From Escherichia phage ST2, in the sequence record OM982647: a DNA stretch of 64,000 bases. One strand, written 5' to 3'. The translations under genes and the position numbers were made by a program. The notes below the pieces were generated by a model, which saw nothing but the letters and a program-made list of their open reading frames with translations, was not told the DNA's origin and ran no database searches. The stretch's first letter is position 1; each line of letters begins with the position of its first letter. Shown piece after piece: positions 1-14,485 of the stretch.

Positions 1-710
1 AGAAATCCTTTAACATAATCAAAATCACGTTCAAACACATGGGCACTTACCATGGTATGAGTATAATCACCAACTTCTACACCACATTCGTTAGCGATAT
101 AATGAAGTAATTTTCCTTGGAGATAAAAATCCAGCTGCATAACAACAGCACAGTTCTGGGAACGCATATGACAGTGGGTATAAAGCTTACCATCGCGAAT
201 ATAATAAGTCACTGAGTCAGTACATGGATATTCAAGCGTTTCGTCCGAATCAAGCAAAGCCTGATCAGAACTTTCTAGAATTTGGAACACAACTCTTCGA
301 GAGTTAGGCTTCTCTTTAAGTTCTTTTAGAAGAGCTGGTAATTGGGCCGCAATGCGAGGACCATAGAAAGTGTTGAAGTTCGCCGGCAAAACATCTGATT
401 TTGGTTTAGAAATAAATTTAGCGACATTAGGATATGCCTTAAACGCTTCTTCTGCGTTGGTACCACCAGAAATCATAAACTTCCAGAAGTCTTCGGCATA
501 TTCATAAGAGATGCGGTTAATACGTGGATCGGTCATTTTGAATGATGATGGAGTGTCAACAACTACTGTCATAGACCCAATTTCATTACAACGTCCAATA
601 CGAGAATCAGTTACGAATTCCGGGTTTTCTAAAATTTCACGATTGACTGCTTTAAATGCGGCTTGAAAATCTGCGGCTTTGATATATTTCATTGTGTTAT
701 GTTTTCCCAT
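1..710 (-). CDS. 42: dCMP hydroxymethylase-like enzyme (thymidylate synthase fold), N-terminal part; gene continues past window start
   Basis: Minus-strand ORF open to position 1, ATG at 708-710; TS/dCMP-HMase-like motifs (NSRRVVFQI, YPCTDSV, MRSQN); position matches T4 gene 42. Confidence 0.75.
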   Translation of the reverse strand, partial: MGKHNTMKYIKAADFQAAFKAVNREILENPEFVTDSRIGRCNEIGSMTVVVDTPSSFKMTDPRINRISYEYAEDFWKFMISGGTNAEEAFKAYPNVAKFISKPKSDVLPANFNTFYGPRIAAQLPALLKELKEKPNSRRVVFQILESSDQALLDSDETLEYPCTDSVTYYIRDGKLYTHCHMRSQNCAVVMQLDFYLQGKLLHYIANECGVEVGDYTHTMVSAHVFERDFDYVKGF

Positions 711-751: not shown

Positions 752-991
752 TTATTTGAATTTCTTAGCGATGTTGATATAACGTAGAGCTTCGGCATCG
801 ATACTTCTAAGAACACTATGAAGAAATGCATCAGCGTAGTATTCCAATTGAACAGGTTCTTTAATCACTTTAGCCGCTTTGGTTTCAAACAGGCCCATCA
901 GGGCCTTTTTAAGAATTTGTTCGTTAGTGTTCAGTTTTATAGTCAAAATCTCTTCGTTAAGTTTATAATTAAAACTTTTTCTAGAAATCAT
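752..991 (-). CDS. hypothetical protein (79 aa)
   Basis: Track ORF in same-strand array; start overlaps stop of upstream gene. Confidence 0.45.
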   Translation of the reverse strand: MISRKSFNYKLNEEILTIKLNTNEQILKKALMGLFETKAAKVIKEPVQLEYYADAFLHSVLRSIDAEALRYINIAKKFK

Positions 992-2157
992 TCCGGGTAC
1001 CTCAAAGCGTCATCAGAGTTAGTTATATCAATAATAGATATGGAGTTTTCTGCTAACCCGTTTTTAGATAATTGACGTTTATAATACCTTTCACAATATG
1101 TACACGTTGACCCACAGATTTCATTAGCACAATCAAAATCTGGATGTCTGAACCACCTTTTTTCTAAAAAGCCATCTAACAAAGAGGTTTCAATATTTAC
1201 TGTATGTGAAAACTCAGTCTCATTTTCAAGAGTGAAAATAGTCTCTAAAGGCTTCCACAGTTCTAACAAATTACCTTCAAACTTTTCAGAAGCGTATGCT
1301 TCAAGAACTTTCAAAATGTAGTCTGTGCTACCTGTACGTCCTGAAACTTTGAATTGAGTGATACCAATATCATTATAAAGTTTCAAATCTTGAGGACGAA
1401 CAAAACGAGTTCTCAACCAGTTAAATGGGTCTGTATCACGAGCTTTAATACAGTGCTGCATTGGATATCCATTTAAGGATTTAGCATCATCAGCTGTAAC
1501 ATCAGTACTATGGAAAATATAGCAAGAGTCACGATAGCTACAATGTGTTGTATACCCTTTACCAGCATTAGAACAGAACTCATTTACAAGAACTTCAAAT
1601 ATTATATTATTCTTATTGCAAAACTCTGCTGCACGCTTCAGGAAAGAAACTGAACGGTTCTTATGAATTCCGCAACAGACCTTTTTGATATTATATTGGT
1701 CATGCAAGTATTTGATTTGAGTTACAGCATCGACATGTAGAATTGTTGAAACTTCAATCTCAATGTCTTTATTGACTTCACGAACAATTTCCATAACAAC
1801 AGGGTTAGCGATAGTAATACGCCATACGCCTATTGACCAAAGATACTGAACATAATCCTGAATAGCTTTCTTCTTCCACTCAACTAGTTCTCTTTTTGAA
1901 CCAGGATTTATCGTGTTGAGTGTATAGTTAAAGCAAATACCTAATTCGTTACAACGTTTAACGTAATCTTCTAACATCTTTTTGTCAACGTCAGGAAGCC
2001 TAAAATCAGGTCTGGCTGCTACAAAAGCCATTTCTCTTGTAGAGCCGTATACTTCGTTTATCAAGCTATTAGGATAAGTGTTATTGAGCTCTACGATTTT
2101 ATCAAGAAGAGCTAAATCAAAATTCGTTCCAATTTTAAAAGTATTCATTTTTTGCAT
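988..2157 (-). CDS. peptidase-U32-family-like protein with Cys cluster
   Basis: 389 aa; TIM-barrel-like N-terminus; motifs EFCSNAGKGYTTHCSY and NGYPMQHCIKAR resemble U32 Cys signature; C-terminal CANEICGSTCTYC cluster. Confidence 0.5.
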   Translation of the reverse strand: MQKMNTFKIGTNFDLALLDKIVELNNTYPNSLINEVYGSTREMAFVAARPDFRLPDVDKKMLEDYVKRCNELGICFNYTLNTINPGSKRELVEWKKKAIQDYVQYLWSIGVWRITIANPVVMEIVREVNKDIEIEVSTILHVDAVTQIKYLHDQYNIKKVCCGIHKNRSVSFLKRAAEFCNKNNIIFEVLVNEFCSNAGKGYTTHCSYRDSCYIFHSTDVTADDAKSLNGYPMQHCIKARDTDPFNWLRTRFVRPQDLKLYNDIGITQFKVSGRTGSTDYILKVLEAYASEKFEGNLLELWKPLETIFTLENETEFSHTVNIETSLLDGFLEKRWFRHPDFDCANEICGSTCTYCERYYKRQLSKNGLAENSISIIDITNSDDALRYPE

Positions 2158-2203
2158 CTCACGTTAATTGATGCGATGGTTTTTGCAGGTCTTACTTAAA
2201 TTA

Positions 2204-2590
2204 TTATAGATTCGGTTTATATGATTTAAATGTTTCGAATTCGCCTTTATTCATAAGAGCTTTGAATTCGTCAGGACGCATAGCTTTGTCGTCGATAATC
2301 CAATCATATACTGGTTTATGTGTTAGCAAATTATGGTACTTCAAGCCAATGTTTGCCAAGTTCTGAATCAGACTTGGGAGAATGTCAATTGCTATACGAC
2401 CAGGACCTACTGACTTCATACCGCGAGCAGTGTAAAGCGTTATGGTATGCCCTGCATCATACAGGGCATTAATGGCAGACACCATTTCGACGTCTGGTTT
2501 GAAGTTCACGTAATCACGATTGTTATTCCACTCTGTTATACAATCATCGACATCAAAATAAAGATTAAGCATGTTTTCTACACGGTGCAT
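2204..2590 (-). CDS. HAD-superfamily phosphatase (putative sugar-phosphate phosphatase)
   Basis: HAD motif I FDVDDCIT, motif II LYTARG; ATG at 2588-2590 overlaps upstream stop (TAATG). Confidence 0.6.
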   Translation of the reverse strand: MHRVENMLNLYFDVDDCITEWNNNRDYVNFKPDVEMVSAINALYDAGHTITLYTARGMKSVGPGRIAIDILPSLIQNLANIGLKYHNLLTHKPVYDWIIDDKAMRPDEFKALMNKGEFETFKSYKPNL

Positions 2591-4275
2591 TAGATTCGTT
2601 CCCATTGATGAGTGATATCGCCACCGATTGGACGATAAGAAACGCCAGTTTCTTTATCAGTTAGTACCCATTTACCAGGATTTTTTGTAATCAGAGTAGC
2701 CGTTACAGGTTCTGCTACGTCATAACTAATAGAGCCGTCCTGAAGTACACGGCCCATGTTACGTAATTGCTTAGTCAGAAGTTCCATACCTTTATAATAT
2801 GCGGCTACCGCTTTAAGTGGATTATTCTTGAAATAACCACCTAATGCAATCCAGATAATTGCCACTGCCAAATGATGATACTCGTTAAACGAACTCATCT
2901 TTCCATATTTGTAAACTAATGGATTGATGTTAATAGTCACATTACAAGTTGTTTCATCAATAGTAAACTGTCCCCAGGTCGGATTAGCGTTGAATTCATC
3001 ATAACCAGAAACAGCATAAAGCACTTTAGCTTCATCATACAATTTTGGCCCGTAAATCTTGGTTTCGCCAAAATATCCACGAGGGTCGATAAACTTGACT
3101 TCACCGTTATCAGTAATCATAGTATTACTGAAGTTCGGGTCACCATGAATAACAGAGTACTGACCCTGAGAACGGTTATGATAACGAATAAGGTGTTCTA
3201 AAGCTTGTTTCAGCATTGGCTTCAGACGCCCAATCTTAGTGTAGTTCACGTGTGTGATTTTACCAAATGAATCAATCAATGGTTGAATGCTTTCACAACG
3301 ATCAATAACTTTCGTATAGAATTCTTTAGTGAAATCACGACGAACAGTTTCAGGACTTACAAAATAAGTGTCTGTGCTGAATTTCAGTGCATCTAAAATT
3401 GCATCAACAATTTGTGGACGAGCAAGACTTGATTTGGATTTAATATATTCAAATGCCGGCTTACCTTTAATGCGTTCCATTTCAAAGTTATTTTCATTAA
3501 CAGAAACTAACTGAGGGACTGAATCTGATTTCACTTTAAGATACCATGAAATCTCATCTTTTTGAAGAGCTCGACCCTGTTCGGTTAATGCGAATTTAGT
3601 TACAGTTTCTTCACCAATTTCAACTGCATTAAAACTACGATTAAGTTCACGAACTTCATGAGCTTTTTCAAGTTTAGGCATATCACCTAAATCAATTAGA
3701 TTCATAAGCTCTGATTTATTGAATGCGCTGCCGTAAAGGAATTCTACGAAATCACGTCCTTTGCAGTATTCATGAATTTCCTCATCGGTAGAACCCATAT
3801 AGAATTCCCAGTCTTTGAACTGATAAATTCCTACAACATTACCACCTGTTGAACCTACGTTAATGATATTTTCACCGTCGAAATTATATCGACATTCGTC
3901 ACCCTTAACATAGATTGCGTTAACATTCCAAGACCATGAACCAAAATCAGGAATAATATCACACCAGTTAACAATTACATTATGGCCGTCTAAATCTTTG
4001 TGTAATTTAGCAAGAGCATAAGCAGATCCATACGCTTCATCAACTGTGCGAATAGTCACATTGAACCCTTCTTGCTCACAATAAGCTCGAACAGTTTCAG
4101 CAAATTTTGAATGAACTACTACAATAATTTCATCTGCGCCAAGGTCAGAATAAATTGTATACAAATTGCTCAGAATAGTGTCTTGTTTATAGTTAACAAG
4201 CACCTTAGGAATATGATGCGTTATTGGATATAAACGAGTTGCCAATCCAGCACCAAGAATAACAGCTTTTTTCAT
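2590..4275 (-). CDS. bifunctional sugar-1-phosphate nucleotidyltransferase / APH-fold anomeric sugar kinase
   Basis: 561 aa; N-terminal MKKAVILGAGLATRL (NTP-transferase G-x-G-x-R); C-terminal HGDPNFSNTMI ... KFIDPRG (kinase catalytic loop and metal-binding motif). Confidence 0.7.
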   Translation of the reverse strand: MKKAVILGAGLATRLYPITHHIPKVLVNYKQDTILSNLYTIYSDLGADEIIVVVHSKFAETVRAYCEQEGFNVTIRTVDEAYGSAYALAKLHKDLDGHNVIVNWCDIIPDFGSWSWNVNAIYVKGDECRYNFDGENIINVGSTGGNVVGIYQFKDWEFYMGSTDEEIHEYCKGRDFVEFLYGSAFNKSELMNLIDLGDMPKLEKAHEVRELNRSFNAVEIGEETVTKFALTEQGRALQKDEISWYLKVKSDSVPQLVSVNENNFEMERIKGKPAFEYIKSKSSLARPQIVDAILDALKFSTDTYFVSPETVRRDFTKEFYTKVIDRCESIQPLIDSFGKITHVNYTKIGRLKPMLKQALEHLIRYHNRSQGQYSVIHGDPNFSNTMITDNGEVKFIDPRGYFGETKIYGPKLYDEAKVLYAVSGYDEFNANPTWGQFTIDETTCNVTININPLVYKYGKMSSFNEYHHLAVAIIWIALGGYFKNNPLKAVAAYYKGMELLTKQLRNMGRVLQDGSISYDVAEPVTATLITKNPGKWVLTDKETGVSYRPIGGDITHQWERI

Positions 4276-4316
4276 GTTGAAGTCCTCATTGGTAAGTAGG
4301 AGTATTGTACACTATT

Positions 4317-4460
4317 CTAGTTAAAGCATTCATACTTTGCTTGTAGTCCAATCATAATCCATCCAATTACAAGTGTTGGAATCATTACTGGAGCCGTTAA
4401 GCTCCAGTAGATAGTCATGACAAACATCAATAGTAAAAGTCCTATTGTTATTGATTTCAT
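4317..4460 (-). CDS. small hydrophobic membrane peptide (47 aa), not in ORF track
   Basis: ATG at 4458-4460 overlaps stop of SIS gene (ATGA); translation MKSITIGLLLLMFVMTIYWSLTAPVMIPTLVIGWIMIGLQAKYECFN; occupies imm position. Confidence 0.35.
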   Translation of the reverse strand: MKSITIGLLLLMFVMTIYWSLTAPVMIPTLVIGWIMIGLQAKYECFN

Positions 4461-5092
4461 TGTTCGCCTCGTAACATGGCACCTAGTGCACCGCCAGGGT
4501 GGAACTTAAGGAAGTCATTAGAGGTAAATCCACGTTCAGACGAAAGGTTGATAGCAAACGTATCGATAAGCGCTAACAACAATGTAGTGGACATAGTCGG
4601 AGCTAAAGAGTTCTCGTCAACTTCTACCGCGATACCGGTACAGAACGTATAATCAAAAAGAGCTTCGTATTCTTGTGGAATGTCAGGGTTACAATGTAAC
4701 AGAATCTGTTTAACCTGAGGACGAATCATACGAAGATGCTTAGCCACGCCTATCATTTCTTCAGTTTTACCAGAACGACTAATATGAATCAACACATCAT
4801 TAGGCGCAATGAATCCTGCATCACCGTGAGAATAATGCCCGGTGTTCAAGTACATACTCGGGATACCGAGTGAAGCAAATGTCTCAGAAGCTTTAGTTGC
4901 AATATTAGCATTCTTACCAACACCTGTAATAATTACTCGGCTTTCATAATTACTAAGTCCCGGGCGTCGAAGAGTTTCTAGAATAGCATTATAACGAGCA
5001 GGGTTTTGACTAATTACTTTGGCCATAGCGGCCAAAGAAGAAGCTTGTTTTATGATTGCGTCAATAGCGATAGTAATAGGAGTAGTTTTCAT
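4457..5092 (-). CDS. SIS-domain sugar-phosphate isomerase (arabinose-5-phosphate isomerase KdsD/GutQ-like, no CBS domains)
   Basis: 211 aa; SIS motifs VIITGVGKNANIA, HISRSGKT, C-terminal RGFTSNDFLKFHPGGALG typical of KdsD. Confidence 0.7.
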   Translation of the reverse strand: MKTTPITIAIDAIIKQASSLAAMAKVISQNPARYNAILETLRRPGLSNYESRVIITGVGKNANIATKASETFASLGIPSMYLNTGHYSHGDAGFIAPNDVLIHISRSGKTEEMIGVAKHLRMIRPQVKQILLHCNPDIPQEYEALFDYTFCTGIAVEVDENSLAPTMSTTLLLALIDTFAINLSSERGFTSNDFLKFHPGGALGAMLRGEQ

Positions 5093-5132: not shown

Positions 5133-7844
5133 TCAAAAATCGAACATATCGAACAGAGATGCTTTCTTCTCGTAATCGAGTTTCGCTGCTGATGTGAATC
5201 CTTCAAGTGGTTTAATAAATGTCTTCTCAAGGAGAACAGTGTAGTCCATCCAATGAAGTACATCGTCTTTAATTAAATCTGTGATTTCAGTACCAGAAGG
5301 CCATGCGATACATTTATCACCGAATGGGTTTCCTTCGCGTAAAGGCAGAACATATACTTTTTCACCTTCTACAACTTGTGGAGCATCGATATTACCTTTG
5401 ATAGCTCGGTTATATGTCAGAATTCCACGAATATGGAACGGGCATTTGGGACCAGGGAATCCACCAACGTCATATTTAGCAATGTTATTCGCAGAAGATA
5501 CCGACGCGATGCTAATATAATTCAATTGACGGAATTCTTTTTCAAACTCTTTAAAATATTCTTGTAATGATTCTTCACCTTCTTGAAGCATACGACGAAT
5601 ACATTCTTTAAGAGCTTTCTGTACTGCTTTAGGGGTCGAAGATTTCTGAGTCTCTAGACCCATGATTTTGAGTTTAGGCTCAGCGTAACGAGTACCTTCC
5701 ATATCCCACACGTTTAATGCATAACGTTTCTTACCGGTCCAGAATCCACCAATACCTTTAGAACCGAGCGGAGGACCAGCGATAGCTTCTCGGTCCATGA
5801 ACATTAAGTGTTGTTTATTGTTCATGTATTCACACATTTCACGGAAACCTCTATCAATAGCTGGTTCCATACGTTCACGTGCAAACTTATCTAAGAAGTC
5901 TACCCAATGGTTAGTATCACGGAATTTAGATTCGCCAACCTTATCAATAATTTTATCTGCAGATACATAAATGGAGTCTGTATCACCATATAGAACGAAA
6001 GCTTCGCCTTCTGTACCACAAACTTCATTCAGATATTCATTAACTTTACGTTCAATCCACTGTAAAGCCATTTGACCAAATGTTGTGATTGCAGTTGCAT
6101 TACGCAAATCGTAATAACGGAACCAAACGTTTCCAAGTGCACCATAAAGAGAGTTGATGAGCAATTTACGGTTAATCTGTGCAGTCATACCTGCAACTTC
6201 AGTACGTTGAGCTCTAAACAACATTTCATTAAGAGATTTAGCAGACAACTTTTTAATCTTTTCTTTAATCTCGTCAGTGAAGTCGAAACGATAATCAACA
6301 TCTAATGGTTCATCAACAGAAAGATTAGGATTATGCAAGGCCTCTTTAATTATTTCACCATTACGTTGAGCTGCAAGCATGTAACCTTTATGTTCTTTAC
6401 GTTGATTAAAGACCTTAGTGATTTCAGTTGGAACTACACCATCACGGTCTTTATAATACATCATGCCGTTAGGAGAACAACTGTACACATCAGAAGGACG
6501 TTCAGCAACAGCGTTAATATAATCATGCAGCGGAGCTACTTTAAACGTTCCTGCTATTGTTTCCGGGCTAATATTCACTTGGCGAATAATACTTGGATAC
6601 AGAGATGTAAGGTCGAAACTCATTACATATTTGTATCGATTTGGAATAGGTTCCTTAACAAAAGCGCCAGGATAAGGTTGAACCGGGTGAGAACGACCTT
6701 GTGGAATCACCTTGTTCTGCTCTTTAAGGCTATTAAAAATAATAGCATCCCATGTTTTAATTGGACTGAACACAGATTGAATCTGAATTTTAGCATAATA
6801 ACCCATGTCCAAACTCAAGTTGATGAACTGACGCTTAGCATCGATTTGCAATACACGATACACGTCGATAATGTTATAAGAAATATATCGTTGGTGATTG
6901 CTTTCACGAAGCTTAGAAATAGGGCCGTCATATTTCAGTTTACCGACATTCAATTCAAATTCTGAAATGTAATCCAGAGAATACGACGGTTGGTTTGTGA
7001 AAGAGAATTTTTTGTAAAGGTCAATGTAATCAAGAACAGAGATACCGAACAATGTAATGATTTCACGAGAACCATACATGTTTTCGATAACTTTAACACG
7101 AGTTTTACGATGTGGTGACAACCGTTTCGCAGTAGATTCGCCAAAAATATTCTTGATTCTGTTATACACATATGGAATATCAAATGACTCAACGTTCCAT
7201 CCAGTCAAAATGACAGGAGTTTTCTGTTGCCAGAAGTTGAGATATTCCATCAATAATTCTTTTTCATTATCAAACGGCATATAAACGATTTTGTCGATAA
7301 TTTCGGATGGAACTTCATCACCACCTTGTTCTTGAAGCTTAGCCGCAATTTCGATAGACCATTCTTCTACATTACCATATGGAGAATTCAATAGATCAAA
7401 TACGTAGAACCTGTCGTCAATTGAGTCATAATGGGTGATAGCATCAATAGGATGTTTTGCTTGTGACGGCTCAGGGAACCCGTCCGGAGATGTTACTTCG
7501 ATGTCGAAGTTAGCCACACGAATTTTTGTATGGTCGTATTTGATTTCATAGTTATAAGTGTCAGACAAATACGCCAATTTAAAATCGTCCATGCCAAGTG
7601 CTTCAAGTCCGATATCTTCCATGCGTTTAATCCATTGGGAGGCATCACGCATATTAGCGAACAACTTACGAGTACACGGTTTACCGTAGATATCGAAATA
7701 TTTCGTAGCCTGACTTTCTGGACAATGAGCAAACAGTGATGGTTTATATTCTACTTCACGAGTACGTTCACGGCCATTAGAATCGATGTAACGTTCAAAA
7801 ATTGAATCACCAATCTGTTCAACCGTTAAGTAAAATTCTTTCAT
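5133..7844 (-). CDS. 43: DNA polymerase (B family) gp43
   Basis: 903 aa; exonuclease motif ANFDIEV and polymerase motif YGDTDS; T4 gp43 size and position. Confidence 0.97.
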   Translation of the reverse strand: MKEFYLTVEQIGDSIFERYIDSNGRERTREVEYKPSLFAHCPESQATKYFDIYGKPCTRKLFANMRDASQWIKRMEDIGLEALGMDDFKLAYLSDTYNYEIKYDHTKIRVANFDIEVTSPDGFPEPSQAKHPIDAITHYDSIDDRFYVFDLLNSPYGNVEEWSIEIAAKLQEQGGDEVPSEIIDKIVYMPFDNEKELLMEYLNFWQQKTPVILTGWNVESFDIPYVYNRIKNIFGESTAKRLSPHRKTRVKVIENMYGSREIITLFGISVLDYIDLYKKFSFTNQPSYSLDYISEFELNVGKLKYDGPISKLRESNHQRYISYNIIDVYRVLQIDAKRQFINLSLDMGYYAKIQIQSVFSPIKTWDAIIFNSLKEQNKVIPQGRSHPVQPYPGAFVKEPIPNRYKYVMSFDLTSLYPSIIRQVNISPETIAGTFKVAPLHDYINAVAERPSDVYSCSPNGMMYYKDRDGVVPTEITKVFNQRKEHKGYMLAAQRNGEIIKEALHNPNLSVDEPLDVDYRFDFTDEIKEKIKKLSAKSLNEMLFRAQRTEVAGMTAQINRKLLINSLYGALGNVWFRYYDLRNATAITTFGQMALQWIERKVNEYLNEVCGTEGEAFVLYGDTDSIYVSADKIIDKVGESKFRDTNHWVDFLDKFARERMEPAIDRGFREMCEYMNNKQHLMFMDREAIAGPPLGSKGIGGFWTGKKRYALNVWDMEGTRYAEPKLKIMGLETQKSSTPKAVQKALKECIRRMLQEGEESLQEYFKEFEKEFRQLNYISIASVSSANNIAKYDVGGFPGPKCPFHIRGILTYNRAIKGNIDAPQVVEGEKVYVLPLREGNPFGDKCIAWPSGTEITDLIKDDVLHWMDYTVLLEKTFIKPLEGFTSAAKLDYEKKASLFDMFDF

Positions 7845-7891
7845 TTAATTTCCTTTAGACGAGTTATTGTCTTTTGTTTGTTGATGAACTT

Positions 7892-7919
7892 ATTATACTC
7901 CAAATGGGACCGAAGTCCC
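7892..7919 (-). promoter_or_regulatory. stem-loop (GGGACTTCGGTCCC) followed by TATAAT-like -10 upstream of gene 43; regA terminator / gene 43 promoter composite
   Basis: Hairpin 7906-7919 sits 7 nt after regA stop; TATAAT (minus) at 7892-7897, about 48 nt before gene 43 ATG. Confidence 0.4.
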
Positions 7920-7925
7920 ATTGCT

Positions 7926-8294
7926 TTAATTACCAATTGTATATTTTGCTTTCAAAGTCCAGTCATCTTTCTGTTTAAAAGAGATAACTCGGAAGTTATT
8001 AGTCAGGCTAAATAGATCTTCACGAGCAGAGTCTTCAATAACAATCAATCCCCAGTCTTCAAGCAACTGAGCAATCGAATCGCGTCGTTGGTAGTCTTCA
8101 CCATCGATATCAACCTGACGTCCGTCCATACGCAACATTTCTTTAAAGTGGACGATGTAGTATTTACCTTGCTTTTGGAGGATATGACAAGACTGGTAAA
8201 GGACTTTATCCTTATTATTAGCGATCCCCATACGGGTCAAAGTCTCTTTGACTTTCAGAAAATCTTCTGGGTTCTTCAATTTAATTTCGATCAT
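7926..8294 (-). CDS. regA: translational repressor RegA
   Basis: Matches T4 RegA from MIEIKLK (ATG 8292-8294); upstream in-frame Met likely not used. Confidence 0.9.
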   Translation of the reverse strand: MIEIKLKNPEDFLKVKETLTRMGIANNKDKVLYQSCHILQKQGKYYIVHFKEMLRMDGRQVDIDGEDYQRRDSIAQLLEDWGLIVIEDSAREDLFSLTNNFRVISFKQKDDWTLKAKYTIGN

Positions 8295-8296
8295 TT

Positions 8297-8860
8297 TTAC
8301 CATTCCAATGCTAATTTTTTAAATTGTTTTTGTTCTTTCACATTTTTTGTAACTTCTTTGAGAAACTCATCAGTGACCATGGCCTTCAGTTCTTTAAGGA
8401 CTATTGGCAACTTGTTATTTTTTTCAAGGAGCCGCTTATACTCGGTAGCATCATTCATGTTGATTGTGTAACGTTTCATCAACAGTTTGATAACTAGTAA
8501 CTCTGAAGTGTCTTCGACTAGTTTAGCCCATTTAGAGAATCGACGACCACGCGGAATTGCCGCCATCATGTAGTTGAAGTGCGCTTCATCACTTAATTCA
8601 GAACCGACTAAGTTCATCATGTAAACAGCTGGCATACATTCCGGGAACTGGGATAATGAGTTCTCAACCATAAATTTTGAGTAGTCGACCTGAGCAATTA
8701 ACATAGATTTCTTTTCATTAATAGCATTAATGATTTTAAAGAATTCATTCTCAGGTTTTTCTTTAAACATGTCAGCACATTTTTGAATCGCATCAGCGTC
8801 ATTAGACTTCCATGCGATTTGGTGCTCGTTAAGTTGGACTTCATCATCAAATAAGTTCAT
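8297..8860 (-). CDS. 62: clamp loader small subunit gp62
   Basis: 187 aa, T4 gp62-like sequence and position. Confidence 0.93.
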
Positions 8861-8861
8861 A

Positions 8862-9824
8862 TTATTTCCAAGTCAGTTCGCAGGTCAGTTGAAGAAGCAT
8901 ATACATAACATGTAATTCAATATTACTTGCTAATCCATGAAACTTATTATTTTCGCCTGCAATTTCGTAAAGCGAAATAATACTTTTACCGGGTGCAACT
9001 TGGTCATAACATTCTGAAACTAATTTATCGATGAACCATGAATAATCTGCAGCATATTTTGGAGCTAATGCACGAAGCTGTTTGATATCTTTGTTCTTCA
9101 TTGCTTCGATAACATCAGAGACTGTGCCACGGTCATTAGTTACGATAGACAGAATACCTGCATCAAGAACACCTTTAGACGAGTACTGGTCTAATTGTCC
9201 AATTGTACGACGAAAGTCCGGGAAGTTCTTTTTAACCAGAGCTGCAACAACTTTCATATCAGCGATTTCGATATTTTCATTCTTACAGATTTCAACCATA
9301 CGGTGAATCATTTTCTTCATCATCGAGATTTTATCTTCTTCGGTTGGACGACCGAATTCGATAACTCGACAACGACTACGTAACGGTTCGATAATTCCAT
9401 CGATGTTGTTGGCAGTAATAATAATAGAACAGTTACTAGAGAATTCTTCCATAAACGTACGAAGGTGGCGTTGTGATTCGGCGAGGCCACTACGGTCAAA
9501 TTCATCGATAACGATAACTTTCGGCTTGCCTTCCATTGAGACTGAACGAGCGAATGCAGTTAACGGACCGCGTACAAAATCAATCTTACAATCAGAACCG
9601 TTGACGAACATCATTTCGGCATTGATATCATTACATAATGCTTTTGCTACGGTTGTTTTACCTGTGCCAGGAGAAGGAGAGTGCAAAATAATATGAGGAA
9701 GTTTTCCTTTAGATACTAAAGACTTGAATGTTTCATGGTCATACGCAGGCAGAATACATTCGTCAATGGAAGAAGGACGATATTTCTGTTCTAGAATGTG
9801 TTCTTTGGAATTGATAGTAATCAT
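8862..9824 (-). CDS. 44: clamp loader large subunit gp44 (AAA+)
   Basis: 320 aa; Walker [11 protein letters not shown]; T4 order 45-44-62-regA-43. Confidence 0.95.
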
Positions 9825-9899
9825 GTAATTTTCCTCATTATCATTAAACTGGAGGATTTCTCCTCCATAATCGTATTACATTAAACGTAAAGCTTTGAC

Positions 9900-10586
9900 T
9901 TAGAAGTCGTGAGTAGAATCGGCTTCCATCGCAATAACATAACTCACTTGAGAGCTTTCAAACTTGGCTGCAACTTTATCACCAGCTCCCCACAACATTA
10001 CTTTATAGTTACCTGGCTGGATTTTCATATTAGCCATATTGATTACGAAGTTAAAGTTGTTAGAACCATCATAATCGGTAAGAGTCAAAGAATACTTAGG
10101 ACGAGTTAGTCCTGAATCTTCAACTTTATTATAGCCATTGATAACAATTTTACCATCTTTATTTGTAATAGCAATTGTATCAATCTGAAGACCACGTGAA
10201 ACTCGAAGCAATTGTTGAAGGTCTTCAGCTTTAATTTCGGTAATCACAGAAGCCACTGGGAATTGAATTGGCTTATTAGGAAAAACAATGGTGCTCTTGT
10301 CAGCGGCAGGCCAATAAACCGTGGAACGTGTATCTGCAATTTTAATATTGCCATCAGTGTGCATTGAAATTTCAGCATCGTCAGACACTAGACTCAAAAT
10401 GCTTAAGAAGCTATTCAAATCATAAAGTGCTACGTCAAAATCAATTTCATCAGAGATATTTGCTTCCGCATAAGTGGTGCCATTAACTGCACGAGTCATA
10501 ATAAATTTACCTTGACTCAACAGAATGCCGGAGTTAATAGAGGCAAAGTTTTTCAGAATAGCGATAGTATCTTTAGACAGTTTCAT
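9900..10586 (-). CDS. 45: sliding clamp gp45
   Basis: T4 gp45-like from MKLSKDT (ATG 10584-10586); 228 aa. Confidence 0.95.
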   Translation of the reverse strand: MKLSKDTIAILKNFASINSGILLSQGKFIMTRAVNGTTYAEANISDEIDFDVALYDLNSFLSILSLVSDDAEISMHTDGNIKIADTRSTVYWPAADKSTIVFPNKPIQFPVASVITEIKAEDLQQLLRVSRGLQIDTIAITNKDGKIVINGYNKVEDSGLTRPKYSLTLTDYDGSNNFNFVINMANMKIQPGNYKVMLWGAGDKVAAKFESSQVSYVIAMEADSTHDF

Positions 10587-10628
10587 TTTATTTCCTTTCA
10601 AGACAATTCAAAGTTTATAACAAATTTA

Positions 10629-11045
10629 TTATGCAGCAACCATCTGCTTTTTAATAGCTTCAGGCAGTGATTCAATATATTCTGGAATTTTAGAAGCAAC
10701 AATTTCGCCAGCTGCAATTAGTTGTTCGTCGGCATCAACACAGTAAAAATCTTCAAGGCGTTCAGAACCGTCTTTATCAAGAACGATTTTAGCACCTGCT
10801 TCGATAGAATCTTTATAGTGCTTACGCATCAAATGAATCCACATATCAGACACATCGTTATCAATAAAACCATAAATCATAAAACGAGTTTCTTGTGGCA
10901 AAGATTGGAGTTTTTTAGCACTTGCGTCATCACAATGCAGGACCCATGCTTTACGAACACGATTATGGTTATGCGGGTTAGCGTCAGTACGGATAGAAGT
11001 AACTTTCAGATCAGCAGCGGTAAAACCTTTAGCAGTAGTAAACAT
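10629..11045 (-). CDS. rpbA: RNA polymerase binding protein RpbA-like
   Basis: 138 aa ORF at the rpbA position between genes 45 and 46. Confidence 0.6.
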   Translation of the reverse strand: MFTTAKGFTAADLKVTSIRTDANPHNHNRVRKAWVLHCDDASAKKLQSLPQETRFMIYGFIDNDVSDMWIHLMRKHYKDSIEAGAKIVLDKDGSERLEDFYCVDADEQLIAAGEIVASKIPEYIESLPEAIKKQMVAA

Positions 11046-11057
11046 ATTATTTCTCTC

Positions 11058-11258
11058 TTATTCGTAGAAGTCGGTAACTGTCCATGCGGAATTGCGATTA
11101 GACATTATTTTATTATACTCATCTTTAAAAGCAGATTTGAGCATTTGTTCAGTAACAATATGTTCTTCACCTGAAAACGTATTGGTCAAAACATATTTTT
11201 TAATTTCAGGGACAACAAGAAGATGTTGGCCGGTTGAATACTCCATGTTGTTCTCCAT
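11058..11258 (-). CDS. hypothetical protein (45.2-like position)
   Basis: 66 aa track ORF in same-strand array. Confidence 0.5.
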   Translation of the reverse strand: MENNMEYSTGQHLLVVPEIKKYVLTNTFSGEEHIVTEQMLKSAFKDEYNKIMSNRNSAWTVTDFYE

Positions 11259-11300
11259 TTAATTTGATGTGGTCATTATAACCACATCGTGTTAAAGCGT

Positions 11301-12989
11301 TTATGAAACAGTCATCACAGTAAATCGTCCAACTTTACTCATCTGAAGATGTTGTCCATAACGTTGAGGGTCGTGGTCTCGATGAGAGATAATGAACACG
11401 TTAGTATTTTGTAAACTTCCAAGAATGGTATCTATAGCCTTAACAGCTTCAGAATCTACAGCGCCGTCAAAAACCTCATCAAGAATCAGAGTGTTGATTT
11501 TAACACCGGAGACCTTTTCAGCAATATCTCGCCATGTAAACAACAATGCGATATCGATACGTGCCTTTTCACCTTGACTAAATGAAGCATAACTAAAATC
11601 TTCACGACCACGTGATTTTATAGATTCATTGAATTCTTCATCAATAGAAAACACGTAATCAGCTTCCATGATTTTAAGATAATGGTTAATCTGCTTGTTG
11701 AACAGAGGCACGTATTTTTTAATGATAGCACCTTTAATACCAGAATCTTTTAACATATCTGTGATAATACCACGATGGTATTTTTCAAGAACGATATCCG
11801 ATTTTGTTTTAATGATTTTATCAAGTTCTTTTTGAAGCAAAGCTATCTCATCGGCATGGTCGATAAATTCCGCCGAGGCTTGTTCTATTGCAGCTTTAAC
11901 TTTCTTAGCTTTATCAATAGTGGCAATCATTGCTTGTTTCTTGGTACGAATATCAGATGCAAGGTCCTGTTTAGTCTTAACATTAGCTCTATATTCGTCC
12001 ACTAGGACACTCAGATTATCTCTGTGACAGGTAAGTTGCTCGAATGAGTGATTACATTCATGAAGCTTATCGGTAATCTTAGAGACAATAGGATCACCCT
12101 GGTGCAACTGTGATGCACAAGTAGGACATGTACCGCCATCATTATACATCTTAATAACTTTGTTATATGAGTCAATTTTAGATTTAATCAAGAATGCTTC
12201 TTGTCCTATCTTGTTGAATGCCTCAGTAGGGTCTTCATCAAGAACGATATTAAGTAGCCGCTCATTAGCTTCTTCGATTTCCGCTTTTAATGAACGTGCT
12301 TCTTTGGCTAGGTCGTCATACATATTCTGTAGACGCGCTACATTATCACCAGATAATTTCTTTTGACGTTCGATATTCTCGTTATAAATCTTAATTTGTT
12401 GGATAACACCATCTTTCTTAGCATCGAGAACTTGTCCCTGGGAATTAAGTTCTCGAACTTGAGACTTATTGATTTTATCCATTTCAGCGAGTGTGCCGAC
12501 TTCTAAAAGGTCTTCGACAAGTTTTCTACGAGCAGGGGTGCTAAGAGCCATGAAAGGGGTATACCCTGCCGTCCCAAGCACAACGATTTGTTTAAAAGAC
12601 GCGTATGACATTCCGATGCTACGTTCAAATTCTTCTTGGAAGTCACGACTGCTGGCAGATTCATCAAGACGAACACCGTCAACGGAGATTTCGAAAATAT
12701 TGGGCTTTTGGCCACGTTTAATGAAGTATTTTTTATCATCGAATTCCATCCAAAGCTCAACTAAGAGCTCTTTCTTGTTCGTGCTATTAATGATTTGTCC
12801 TTTCTTAACATCACGAAATGGTTTACCGAAAAGTCCGAAAGTAATGGCTTCTAACATCGTAGATTTACCACCGCCATTTTTACCAGTGATTAATGTCTTT
12901 TGAACTTTATCTAATTGGATATCAATAGGATTCCCACCTACCGACATGATGTTTTGATAACGAACACGATTTAATTTAAATGATTTCAT
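11301..12989 (-). CDS. 46: recombination endonuclease subunit gp46 (SbcC/Rad50-like)
   Basis: 562 aa; Walker A GKNGGGKST; coiled-coil middle; signature and Walker B at C-terminus. Confidence 0.95.
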   Translation of the reverse strand: MKSFKLNRVRYQNIMSVGGNPIDIQLDKVQKTLITGKNGGGKSTMLEAITFGLFGKPFRDVKKGQIINSTNKKELLVELWMEFDDKKYFIKRGQKPNIFEISVDGVRLDESASSRDFQEEFERSIGMSYASFKQIVVLGTAGYTPFMALSTPARRKLVEDLLEVGTLAEMDKINKSQVRELNSQGQVLDAKKDGVIQQIKIYNENIERQKKLSGDNVARLQNMYDDLAKEARSLKAEIEEANERLLNIVLDEDPTEAFNKIGQEAFLIKSKIDSYNKVIKMYNDGGTCPTCASQLHQGDPIVSKITDKLHECNHSFEQLTCHRDNLSVLVDEYRANVKTKQDLASDIRTKKQAMIATIDKAKKVKAAIEQASAEFIDHADEIALLQKELDKIIKTKSDIVLEKYHRGIITDMLKDSGIKGAIIKKYVPLFNKQINHYLKIMEADYVFSIDEEFNESIKSRGREDFSYASFSQGEKARIDIALLFTWRDIAEKVSGVKINTLILDEVFDGAVDSEAVKAIDTILGSLQNTNVFIISHRDHDPQRYGQHLQMSKVGRFTVMTVS

Positions 12990-13240
12990 ATGTATTCTCT
13001 TCGAATGAAGTCCTCTACATATTTTAACATGTCATCTCTATCAGCAAAATATTCATCTAGTTCTGCATACATAACAACACCTGGTGCGTACTCACAGGTA
13101 ACATACATTGTTCCAAAGAAACGAGGAGTTGATTCCTCGTAATTCTCGGTCCATTCAACTATACCAATATAACCGTCACCAATACTAAATTCATGACGAT
13201 GGATTTCATAATCAGTCTTCGTCATTATACGCATCCTCAA
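12986..13240 (-). CDS. hypothetical protein (46.1-like)
   Basis: 84 aa ORF coupled to neighbours. Confidence 0.55.
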   Translation of the reverse strand: MRMRIMTKTDYEIHRHEFSIGDGYIGIVEWTENYEESTPRFFGTMYVTCEYAPGVVMYAELDEYFADRDDMLKYVEDFIRREYI

Positions 13241-13469
13241 TACACGCTTCAGCCATTTTAAGAATAGAGCCGGGAGTATCGTTGTCCATTATATTAAAGC
13301 TAAATTCAATAGCCCAGTCGGTGCAGACATGAACTGCTTTAACTTCATTGCCTTCAACGCGTAATGGCTCAATCCAATACTTGATAGTGTTCTCGAATCC
13401 ATCGTCATCTTTAACGTCCATTTCAACTTCAAGCCTGAGTCCAGCATTGTTAAATTCATCTAAAGTCAT
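13212..13469 (-). CDS. hypothetical protein (46.2-like)
   Basis: 85 aa ORF coupled to neighbours. Confidence 0.55.
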   Translation of the reverse strand: MTLDEFNNAGLRLEVEMDVKDDDGFENTIKYWIEPLRVEGNEVKAVHVCTDWAIEFSFNIMDNDTPGSILKMAEACIEDAYNDED

Positions 13470-14485
13470 TGTGTTGCCTCAATATAAAGTTCGTTAGAAT
13501 ATTTGACCAGCGCTTCTCTGTCTTCGTCTGAGATATCTGGAATCGCGTCAATATATTCTTTAATGATATCTTGAAGTGATTTAATCTCGATTTCCTGGTC
13601 GTCATCAGATTCAACACTATTATCAACTTTAGAAACCATACGAAGAGAGTGAACTACTTTTTCAAGTTCAGATTCAAACTTAGTCAACTCTGAATCAATT
13701 TCTGATACTATAACACGTACGGCCAGATTAGTATAATCAGAATAATTGATTTTGCCTTTAAACGGATAAGTGATTCGTCGATGCCATGTTGTTTCATTAG
13801 GAATAAATTCCATACGTTCAACATCAGTGTCAAATACCCAGAATCCGCGCGGGTCGTTCTCATCACCTGCAGTAAGGGTCCATGGTGTCCCAATATATTT
13901 GACGTTAGCAGCTTCAGAGATTGTGTGGAAGTGGCCGGACCAGACTTGTTTATAAGTCTTTAAGAAATCAGGTTCAAGCCCATGAGACTTCATTCCTTTA
14001 TAGAAATAAAAGCCATTCAGTTCCCAGTGCCCAACACAATACGCTGCAGAAGAAGTCTTGATGTGCTCTAAGATTTCACCTGTATTTTCTTCACACATCC
14101 ATGGAACGATATCAATCAGACATCCGTCAAAATCTACAGTAGTTGGATGCTCATAAATAGTAAAGTTTTCAAATTGAGTTAACAATTCAGAAACAGTGTT
14201 AGGTGTTATTGTATTCTTAAACGCCATGTCATGGTTTCCTATCGTGACATGAACGTGAATGCCTGCTTTAGAAATCATATCAACGATTTCACGATTGAAT
14301 TCCATTGTACGATGTGTTATTGCTTTACGGACGTCAAACCAATCACCGTACTGGATCCAAGTTTTAATCCCGTGTTTCTTAGAGTATTCAATTGCTTGAC
14401 GAATACCATCACGTTGAATATCTTGAACCCATGGGTCGTCTTGTTTGACTCCGATATGGAAGTCGCCTAAGTGCAAAATTTTCAT
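13466..14485 (-). CDS. 47: recombination endonuclease subunit gp47 (SbcD/Mre11-like)
   Basis: 339 aa; phosphoesterase motifs LHLGDFH, GNHD. Confidence 0.95.
   Translation of the reverse strand: MKILHLGDFHIGVKQDDPWVQDIQRDGIRQAIEYSKKHGIKTWIQYGDWFDVRKAITHRTMEFNREIVDMISKAGIHVHVTIGNHDMAFKNTITPNTVSELLTQFENFTIYEHPTTVDFDGCLIDIVPWMCEENTGEILEHIKTSSAAYCVGHWELNGFYFYKGMKSHGLEPDFLKTYKQVWSGHFHTISEAANVKYIGTPWTLTAGDENDPRGFWVFDTDVERMEFIPNETTWHRRITYPFKGKINYSDYTNLAVRVIVSEIDSELTKFESELEKVVHSLRMVSKVDNSVESDDDQEIEIKSLQDIIKEYIDAIPDISDEDREALVKYSNELYIEATQ

Follow-up and report, generated by a model that had tools for sequence, protein, structure and literature searches.

The window analysed here is a stretch of 64,000 nucleotides (nt) from Escherichia phage ST2 (sequence record OM982647), a genome of the Mosigvirus type (RB69/PhAPEC2-like T-even phages), and the subject of this report is the cassette of six minus-strand genes at positions 752-5092, together with the adjoining gene for a homologue of thymidylate synthase (ThyA). 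Judged from its close likeness to characterised phages, this region very probably provides the sugar donor in the DNA hypermodification of Mosigvirus, operating by the published sugar pathway. Three genes only make the sugar donor, namely those for the SIS isomerase, the nucleotidyltransferase/kinase fusion and the HAD phosphatase, and the predicted acceptor base is 5-hydroxycytosine (5hoC), not hydroxymethylcytosine (hmC). The cassette was already known: it has been linked to arabinosylation since 2018, and the window represents another Mosigvirus isolate, closest to PhAPEC2. What is contributed here is a corrected chemistry for the initial annotation of this DNA and a lead on the U32-family protein encoded in the same cluster, which we tentatively propose to be an O2-independent, prephenate-dependent cytosine C5-hydroxylase; the cassette itself adds nothing new.

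Organization and conservation of the cassette

The genes concerned, with their lengths in amino acids (aa), are the following:

5133-7844, minus strand: gp43 DNA polymerase, an open reading frame (ORF) of 903 aa that forms the upstream boundary of the cassette; annotated as DNA polymerase in Bas47 and RB69
4457-5092, minus strand: SIS isomerase, 211 aa; orthologue of RB69 gp55
4317-4460, minus strand: hydrophobic membrane peptide of 47 aa; PHROG 3610
2590-4275, minus strand: NTP-transferase/kinase fusion, 561 aa; orthologue of RB69 gp52:53 and HY126 AfhE
2204-2605, minus strand: HAD phosphatase, 133 aa; orthologue of RB69 gp51 and HY126 AfhF
988-2157, minus strand: U32-family putative Fe-S protein, 389 aa; orthologue of RB69 gp50
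752-991, minus strand: ORF of 79 aa (p79); orthologue of RB69 gp49, PHROG 8601
3-710, minus strand: predicted ThyA-family 5-hydroxy-dCMP synthase, its 3' end cut by the window edge; orthologue of RB69 gp48

The cluster is real and conserved among phages. A 4.7-kb query spanning the cassette matched 199 phage records, 152 of which cover at least 80% of the region; the closest DNA match was PhAPEC2 (98.9% identity), and RB69 matched the same query at 97.5% identity with the same gene order. The six co-oriented ORFs of the initial annotation were all recovered where it had placed them, and the two motifs it had quoted, RGFTSNDFLKFHPGGALG and FDVDDCIT, are both present in the translations. It had also called the genes translationally coupled, which holds for three overlapping pairs (SIS/47-aa peptide by 4 nt, fusion/HAD by 16 nt and U32/79-aa ORF by 4 nt) but not for the remaining three junctions, which are spacers of 40-46 nt. 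Its placement of the cassette between genes 43 and 42 was right on the side of gp43; the supposed gene 42, however, is not a functional orthologue of T4 gp42. The slot is indeed that of T4 imm, as the T4 43-42 interval contains imm.1 and imm. No homologue of T4 imm, imm.1 or beta-glucosyltransferase and no gp42-type gene was found in the 64-kb window.

A scan for promoters and terminators remained at chance level (26 promoter-like sites versus 27.9 expected). One sigma-70-like match (TTTAAA, 16 nt, TATAAT; window 2230-2203, minus strand) finishes at the stop codon of the HAD gene, with 46 nt left before U32 begins. U32 and p79 could be transcribed separately from it, but such matches occur no more often than in shuffled sequence.

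The sugar-donor pathway

The presence of arabinose in RB69 DNA was discovered by Thomas et al. (2018; PMC6024577), who reported it then as arabinosyl-hmC, showed that ORF053c and ORF052c are one gene of 561 aa, and proposed this gene and ORF055c as the makers of UDP-arabinose within a "module of eight genes between DNA polymerase and UvsX". Using nuclear magnetic resonance and mass spectrometry, Lee et al. (2026; PMC13326640) then found the arabinose of RB69 DNA to be ether-linked straight to C5 via 5hoC, and the earlier hmC assignment was independently called erroneous (PMC13390438). Mono- and di-arabinosyl-5hoC replaces cytosine in Mosigvirus DNA; enzyme activities or arabinosyl-5hoC in virion DNA are shown for RB69, HY126, Bas46/47 and NP in the literature. 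The initial annotation had professed ignorance of any link between this gene set and arabinosylated DNA, a link published since 2018 (PMC6024577) and reflected in the annotation "UDP-arabinose biosynthesis" carried by the BASEL phage Bas47 (Mosigvirus phapec2; BASEL 2021). The GenBank record of HY126 gives a functional name to the isomerase solely, and labels the U32 orthologue hypothetical. The cassette is also said to have been characterised by Mahler in 2025 and, in phage HY126, by He in 2026.

Matches to Pfam and NCBIfam upheld the domain calls made initially (SIS without CBS, NTP-transferase/kinase and U32). The SIS protein is matched by Pfam SIS (E=4.8e-10) and by NCBIfam KpsF/GutQ (5e-32) and KdsD (2e-30); no CBS domains were found in it, the KdsD/GutQ alignment being limited to the SIS part. 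Its relatives in the PDB are 3etn (6.8e-25), the best of them and a CBS-less isomerase, 5uqi and 2xhz, and it belongs to PHROG 5670, "arabinose 5-phosphate isomerase" (1.6e-116). In the fusion, residues 3-99 correspond to Pfam NTP_transferase (E=8.5e-10), and residues 308-409 give weak kinase-like matches (Fructosamin_kin, EcKL and RIO1). The fusion protein matches PDB 1jyk LicC and is 99.5% identical to the corrected RB69 ORF53_52c. The HAD protein, whose FDVDDCIT is a DxDxT motif, is near-identical to the solved structure 9iqw (E=3.5e-86), is a relative of 1xpj, and is matched by the NCBIfam EcbF-BcbF capsule phosphatase (6.9e-13).

We assign the pathway steps to the window genes because they are published for orthologues 97-99% identical. 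The SIS isomerase would divert ribulose-5-phosphate (Ru5P) to arabinose-5-phosphate (Ara5P), as published for gp55 (PMC13326640) and as the initial annotation had it. The C-terminal kinase of the fusion would then phosphorylate C1 to give arabinose-1,5-bisphosphate (Ara-1,5-P2), the HAD phosphatase would take off the 5-phosphate to leave arabinose-1-phosphate (Ara1P), and the N-terminal nucleotidyltransferase of the fusion would join Ara1P with UTP into UDP-D-arabinofuranose (UDP-Araf). These three steps follow those reported for the C-terminal domain of gp52:53/AfhE, for gp51/AfhF and for the N-terminal domain of AfhE, respectively, by He et al. (2026), as relayed in PMC13326640. Glycosyltransferases encoded outside the window would attach the sugar: the cognate DNA arabinosyltransferases (gp46:47-type and gp3-type) are absent within the 64 kb, and by synteny with Bas47 and RB69 they are expected just past the window start, which agrees with the glycosyltransferase that had been foreseen beyond "gene 42". 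Such a cassette explains how RB69-like phages build a sugar donor that the host lacks and evade restriction and CRISPR systems.

The acceptor base

The ThyA homologue gp48 of RB69 yields 5-hydroxy-dCMP (5hodCMP) with flavin and O2, the oxygen coming from O2, and gp48 and nine other ThyA homologues yield 5hodC in E. coli without U32 (PMC13326640). Asn at E. coli ThyA position 169 is diagnostic of a 5hodCMP synthase (PMC13326640). The product of the window gene shares 98.7% identity with RB69 gp48 and about 97% with PDB 9iqc, 9ir2 and 9iqu, against 24.8% with T4 gp42. When aligned, it has Asn at EcThyA-169 and Asp at 177; the signature reads MRSQN in the window, QRSCD in ThyA and MRSND in T4 gp42, where Asp169 is kept. 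This signature points to 5hoC, not hmC, as the acceptor base, and the ThyA homologue would make 5hodCMP with flavin and O2. The hmC acceptor supposed initially was given up on account of Asn169 and of the published ether linkage on 5hoC (PMC13326640, PMC13390438).

Genes that stand apart from the sugar pathway

The 47-aa peptide is homologous (24/46 identical) to an unannotated hydrophobic ORF of 49 aa located between T4 gene 42 and imm (L014, NC_000866; 5228-5377, minus strand), which overlaps the imm stop by 4 nt, and homologues are present in JS98 and LC53 too. It is a generic T-even membrane peptide and not specific to the cassette. A role as a cassette component, either transporter or anchor, was rejected in view of the T4 homologue.

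U32 and the 79-aa ORF are a sub-module separate from the sugar pathway; we set them apart because Acinetobacter and JS98-type phages carry the remaining pathway without them. The AlphaFold2 (AF2) model of the 79-aa product shows two helices, a low-confidence helical hairpin (predicted local distance difference test, pLDDT, 68), and no Pfam match was obtained at E<=10. In HY126 (L019, 6161-6283) and in many other Mosigvirus genomes the ORF is broken by frameshifts or reduced to 40-58 aa, and in those genomes with a damaged copy (proteins P0142-P0152) the overlapping U32 gene is about 99% identical. It also evolves faster than U32. Possibly it is at most a dispensable accessory of U32. The idea that it is a diverged chorismate mutase was rejected: comparison with the LC53 chorismate mutase gave BLASTP E=16 and an hhalign probability of 0.3%, and both genes co-exist in Yersinia phages and in Serratia phage 92A1.

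That all six genes make up one route (Ru5P, Ara5P, free arabinose, Ara1P and NDP-arabinose) serving hmC from a T4-type gene 42, as the initial annotation proposed, is thus highly improbable. Its domain content does fit, and the central idea of an NDP-arabinose donor for glycosylating a modified cytosine matches the published RB69/HY126 pathway. Arabinosyl-hmC is what Thomas et al. reported in 2018 (PMC6024577), and Table 1 of PMC13326640 still gives the order via free arabinose ("dephosphorylates Araf5p to Ara", "phosphorylates Ara to Araf1p"). This table speaks against the order adopted here, as does the dependence of that order on He et al. (2026), relayed in PMC13326640. There, however, the reported substrates are Ara5P for the kinase activity of AfhE and the bisphosphate for the phosphatase AfhF, so that the published route runs via Ara-1,5-P2 and not via the free sugar. 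The acceptor half of the proposal conflicts with the direct C5-O-arabinose ether on 5hoC (PMC13326640, PMC13390438) and with the 5hodCMP-synthase signature of a ThyA homologue so distant from T4 gp42. The unity of the six genes, for its part, conflicts with the finding of the 47-aa peptide in T4 and with the phages that have a full sugar route without U32 and p79.

One phage with such a route is the Acinetobacter phage DLP1, whose locus has the SIS isomerase, the kinase fusion, the HAD phosphatase, the ThyA homologue, a glycosyltransferase and a Tmk-like kinase, and no U32. Acinetobacter phage DLP3 makes tri-arabinosyl-5hoC.

JS98 (Dhakavirus; L011, 5062-10175) keeps imm and has a ThyA homologue with D169N, the kinase fusion, the HAD phosphatase, a Tmk-like kinase and a glycosyltransferase. 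It is without the SIS isomerase and without U32, and an unannotated ORF of 166 aa (5440-5940) occupies the place expected for the isomerase.

U32 as a candidate anaerobic cytosine hydroxylase

Our preferred reading of the U32 protein, held tentatively and at somewhat less than even confidence, is that of an O2-independent, prephenate-dependent enzyme hydroxylating C5 of cytosine; it is built on homology, a modelled fold and gene neighbourhoods. The characterised U32 proteins (UbiU/V, TrhP and RlhA) are Fe-S, O2-independent, prephenate-dependent hydroxylases (PMC6747719, PMC6599085, PMC5727448, PMC10990095). RlhA gives rise to 5-hydroxycytidine in 23S rRNA and TrhP to 5-hydroxyuridine (ho5U) in tRNA (PMC5727448, PMC6599085, PMC6747719, PMC10990095); direct in vitro activity was never shown for any U32 hydroxylase (PMC10990095). 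As to the phage protein, RB69 gp50 is labelled just "sugar or heterocycle reductase" and the term U32 is not used (PMC13326640). The paper on phage Thanatos models the U32 orthologue TH1_065 and assigns it nothing, and its authors state no hypothesis for the origin of the hydroxyl. We found no published function for gp50 in a literature coverage that was incomplete, and He 2026 and Mahler 2025 may address it.

The window protein matches Pfam Peptidase_U32 with E=7.4e-11 (42.2 bits versus a cut-off of 22.4). Its AF2 model (pLDDT 92.5) has a TIM-barrel fold, and the top match in a Foldseek search of the PDB was the U32 structure 5d88 (TMt 0.74); a sequence search of the PDB gave no match, 5d88 being seen by the fold search alone. 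When a 64-sequence profile of the phage clade was compared by hhalign with the characterised families, RlhA was best (79% probability over 203 columns), followed by TrhP (13%) and UbiU (6%). An invariant K..GR motif is common to U32 and the characterised U32 hydroxylases, and C206, C212 and C236 align with the Fe-S ligands C169, C176 and C193 of UbiU. Across divergent full-length members of the clade, C195, C206 and C236 are present in 124-125 of 125; C195 is a likely candidate to replace the fourth canonical Cys, which is missing. Position 212 is Cys in 75 of the 125 and His in 49, an alternation that may mark two sub-clades with different cluster properties. About 118 of the 125 retain a second site, the C-terminal CX4CX3CX2C, such that the conserved Cys residues make two candidate four-ligand sites.

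Conservation sets U32 apart within the cluster. At least 82% identical in all 221 phages carrying it, it is the most conserved cluster protein, and this identity holds in Thanatos and Proteus Pm5461, where the sugar enzyme drops to 54% and 42%. A neighbouring gene provides an indirect link to prephenate. In the Serratia phage LC53, the slot of the 79-aa ORF is taken by a type II chorismate mutase (L003, 7158-7502; Pfam CM_2, E=1.7e-11) translationally coupled to U32, and 54 phage records of about 12 genera (enterobacterial T4-like phages and Shewanella phages) have homologues of this enzyme adjoining U32 and the ThyA homologue.

Beyond these phages, U32 belongs to a phage clade of at least 484 clusters at 50% identity, and homologues at 48-56% identity were examined in a sample of seven phage-like contigs that have DnaE-type polymerases. 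In five of these, the gene immediately before U32 encodes a gp46:47-like glycosyltransferase; the two genes overlap, and the glycosyltransferase matches are full-length (tblastn E from 4e-17 to 4e-8). These pairs lie on the metagenomic contigs L015 (4459-8086), L016, L017, L018 and L007 (7028-9101). Preceding the glycosyltransferase is a gp45-like (Tmk-like) kinase, confirmed by BLAST in two contigs (L015, E=2e-7; L007, 3e-4). No ThyA-like, SIS, kinase-fusion, HAD or chorismate mutase gene was found within 7-8 kb in any of the seven. In the distant contigs, U32 takes the place held by the ThyA-type hydroxylase in RB69.

The hosts show a pattern as well. Phages bearing U32 all infect facultative anaerobes (Enterobacterales and Shewanella). 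Acinetobacter is a strict aerobe. No U32 was seen in Acinetobacter phages in the genus summary, among the 60 matches listed or at the DLP1 locus, and 57 such phages carry the sugar enzyme. That U32 is present without exception in phages of facultative anaerobes was rejected, as JS98-type E. coli phages are without it.

Under the hydroxylase reading, U32 would act with the coupled 79-aa ORF or, in other genera, with the chorismate mutase, and would supply 5hoC under conditions, such as those of the anoxic gut, that disable the O2-dependent enzyme of the ThyA type. It would back up the O2-dependent enzyme in RB69-like phages and replace it in others. RB69-like phages would then hold two routes to 5hoC, one of the flavin/O2 ThyA type and one of the Fe-S/prephenate U32 type, whereas in many uncultivated DnaE-type phages the U32 route would be the sole one, followed by a gp46:47-like DNA glycosyltransferase. 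A wider version, that U32 founds a large unnamed phage-borne clade which hydroxylates cytosine C5, in dCMP or in DNA, with prephenate as the oxygen donor, is doubtful as a claim that is both true and unpublished. RB69-like phages are expected to destroy dCTP, as T4 does. The published hydroxylase needs O2, yet gut Enterobacterales are hosts, and anaerobic replication is unaddressed in the literature that we found; a prephenate-dependent U32 hydroxylase, if real, would explain it. O2-independent hydroxylation, known from RNA and quinones, would thereby reach DNA precursors, and the U32 hydroxylase family would gain its first substrate at the nucleotide or DNA level. Were that substrate dCMP, it would be a small soluble target and U32 chemistry could be reconstituted in a soluble system. 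Hundreds of uncultivated phages would, moreover, be flagged as likely carriers of glycosylated 5-hydroxypyrimidine DNA.

Several observations weigh against this proposal. The fourth canonical Cys of CX6CX15CX3/4C is missing from the phage protein and the spacing differs (CX10CX5CX23C). No chorismate mutase was found in the 64-kb window, and Mosigvirus phages are without one of their own. JS98-type E. coli phages have the D169N hydroxylase and sugar genes and no U32, so not all gut phages require it; no more than a few evolutionary events may underlie the aerobe/anaerobe pattern. The neighbourhoods of the distant homologues were seen with only 7-8 kb of flank on either side. Finally, the published label of gp50 as a "sugar or heterocycle reductase" favours another kind of enzyme.

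That other enzyme would be a reductase, epimerase or mutase acting on a sugar or heterocycle, for instance tuning the ring form or configuration of arabinose. Besides the label (PMC13326640), an "epimerase" is named in the cluster (PMC13390438), and the TIM barrel resembles sugar-acting enzymes too, with a low TM-score. Still, we regard it as unlikely. AfhE and AfhF are reported to account for UDP-Araf synthesis (PMC13326640). Distant U32 clusters are without SIS, kinase and HAD genes, one of them being built on galactofuranose (GLF) and TAGT enzymes, and a chorismate mutase next door has no role in pentose chemistry. DLP3, in addition, makes its tri-arabinosyl-5hoC without U32. Rather less probable is a non-catalytic U32 that assists the ThyA-type hydroxylase in electron transfer or maturation, for instance by re-reducing the flavin. 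The two conserved four-ligand Cys sites are typical of electron-transfer Fe-S proteins, and the gene does adjoin that of a flavin-dependent 5hodCMP synthase. However, gp48 and the nine other ThyA homologues work in E. coli without U32 (PMC13326640), no ThyA-like gene lies within 7-8 kb of the distant homologues, and the chorismate mutase would be left unexplained. Scarcely credible is a collagenase-like peptidase unrelated to DNA modification, the meaning of the label "peptidase" in GenBank and PHROG: that label is historical, the characterised members being Fe-S hydroxylases, and genes for nucleotide or DNA modification adjoin U32 in every lineage sampled.

Comparison with known systems

With respect to RB69 gp55/gp52:53/gp51 and HY126 AfhE/AfhF, the window has orthologous genes in the same order and slot, and no substantive difference was found. 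The bacterial nucleotide-heptose pathway employs GmhA (SIS isomerase), HldE/HddA (anomeric kinase), GmhB (HAD bisphosphate phosphatase) and HldE/HddC (nucleotidyltransferase). Shared with it are the isomerase, a kinase that phosphorylates C1 of a sugar already bearing a distal phosphate, a HAD enzyme that removes this distal phosphate, and nucleotidyl transfer, as well as a bifunctional kinase/transferase and, in the window, a weak NCBIfam HddC match; gp51 has a Foldseek match to a GmhB-type phosphatase (PMC13326640). The phage pathway differs in that the sugar is a pentose and not a heptose, the kinase resembles aminoglycoside/choline kinases rather than PfkB or GHMP, the transferase domain comes before the kinase domain, and the product goes on DNA and not on lipopolysaccharide. 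By analogy, the phage cassette would work like the nucleotide-heptose pathway without being a member of it.

The glucosyl-hmC system of T4 consists of the dCMP hydroxymethylase gp42 and alpha- and beta-glucosyltransferases that use host UDP-glucose. The two systems share their place in the genome (gene 43 to uvsX) and their purpose, and each has an enzyme of the ThyA superfamily with dCMP as substrate. Here, however, the base would be 5hoC made via flavin and O2, whereas T4 makes hmC via folate; the phage must make its own sugar donor, and the window is without beta-gt, imm and imm.1.

As for U32, the domain, the TIM barrel and three cysteines that align with Fe-S ligands are in common with RlhA (ho5C2501, 23S rRNA), TrhP (ho5U34, tRNA) and UbiU-UbiV (ubiquinone). 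RlhA and TrhP target C5 of a pyrimidine, as proposed for the phage protein, and the chorismate mutase next door in other genera hints at a supply of prephenate. Unlike them, the phage U32 forms a distinct clade (about 18-19% identity) with the extra C-terminal CX4CX3CX2C, and its substrate is presumed to be a deoxynucleotide or DNA. Pairs of aerobic and anaerobic enzymes are known in TrhO/TrhP, UbiI-H-F/UbiU-V and T4 NrdAB/NrdDG. O2-dependent and O2-independent enzymes for one reaction are kept together by organisms that meet both conditions (PMC6599085), and we infer that the ThyA-type/U32 pairing in the phage may parallel TrhO/TrhP and UbiIHF/UbiUV.

Other observations at U32 loci

In LC53, an inserted homing endonuclease gene containing NUMOD3 (L003, 5352-5990) separates the gene for the HAD phosphatase from that for U32. 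In L015 and L016, the glycosyltransferase is preceded by radical SAM/SPASM genes.

The L007 locus (5777-14179; Logan SRR33454321) has U32 with a TAGT-type glycosyltransferase, Gly_transf_sug, dUTPase/DCD and UDP-galactopyranose mutase (GLF), a content that suggests galactofuranosyl-hydroxypyrimidine DNA modification in an uncultivated phage. On two large DnaE-type phage contigs, of 466 kb (L004, 7447-9939) and 60 kb (L005, 7504-9826), a gene of the dCMP-deaminase family is followed by U32, near Tmk and UDG, and U32 is coupled to a protein of about 250 aa that has no annotation. The substrate of U32 in these two contigs could be a uracil rather than a cytosine nucleotide.

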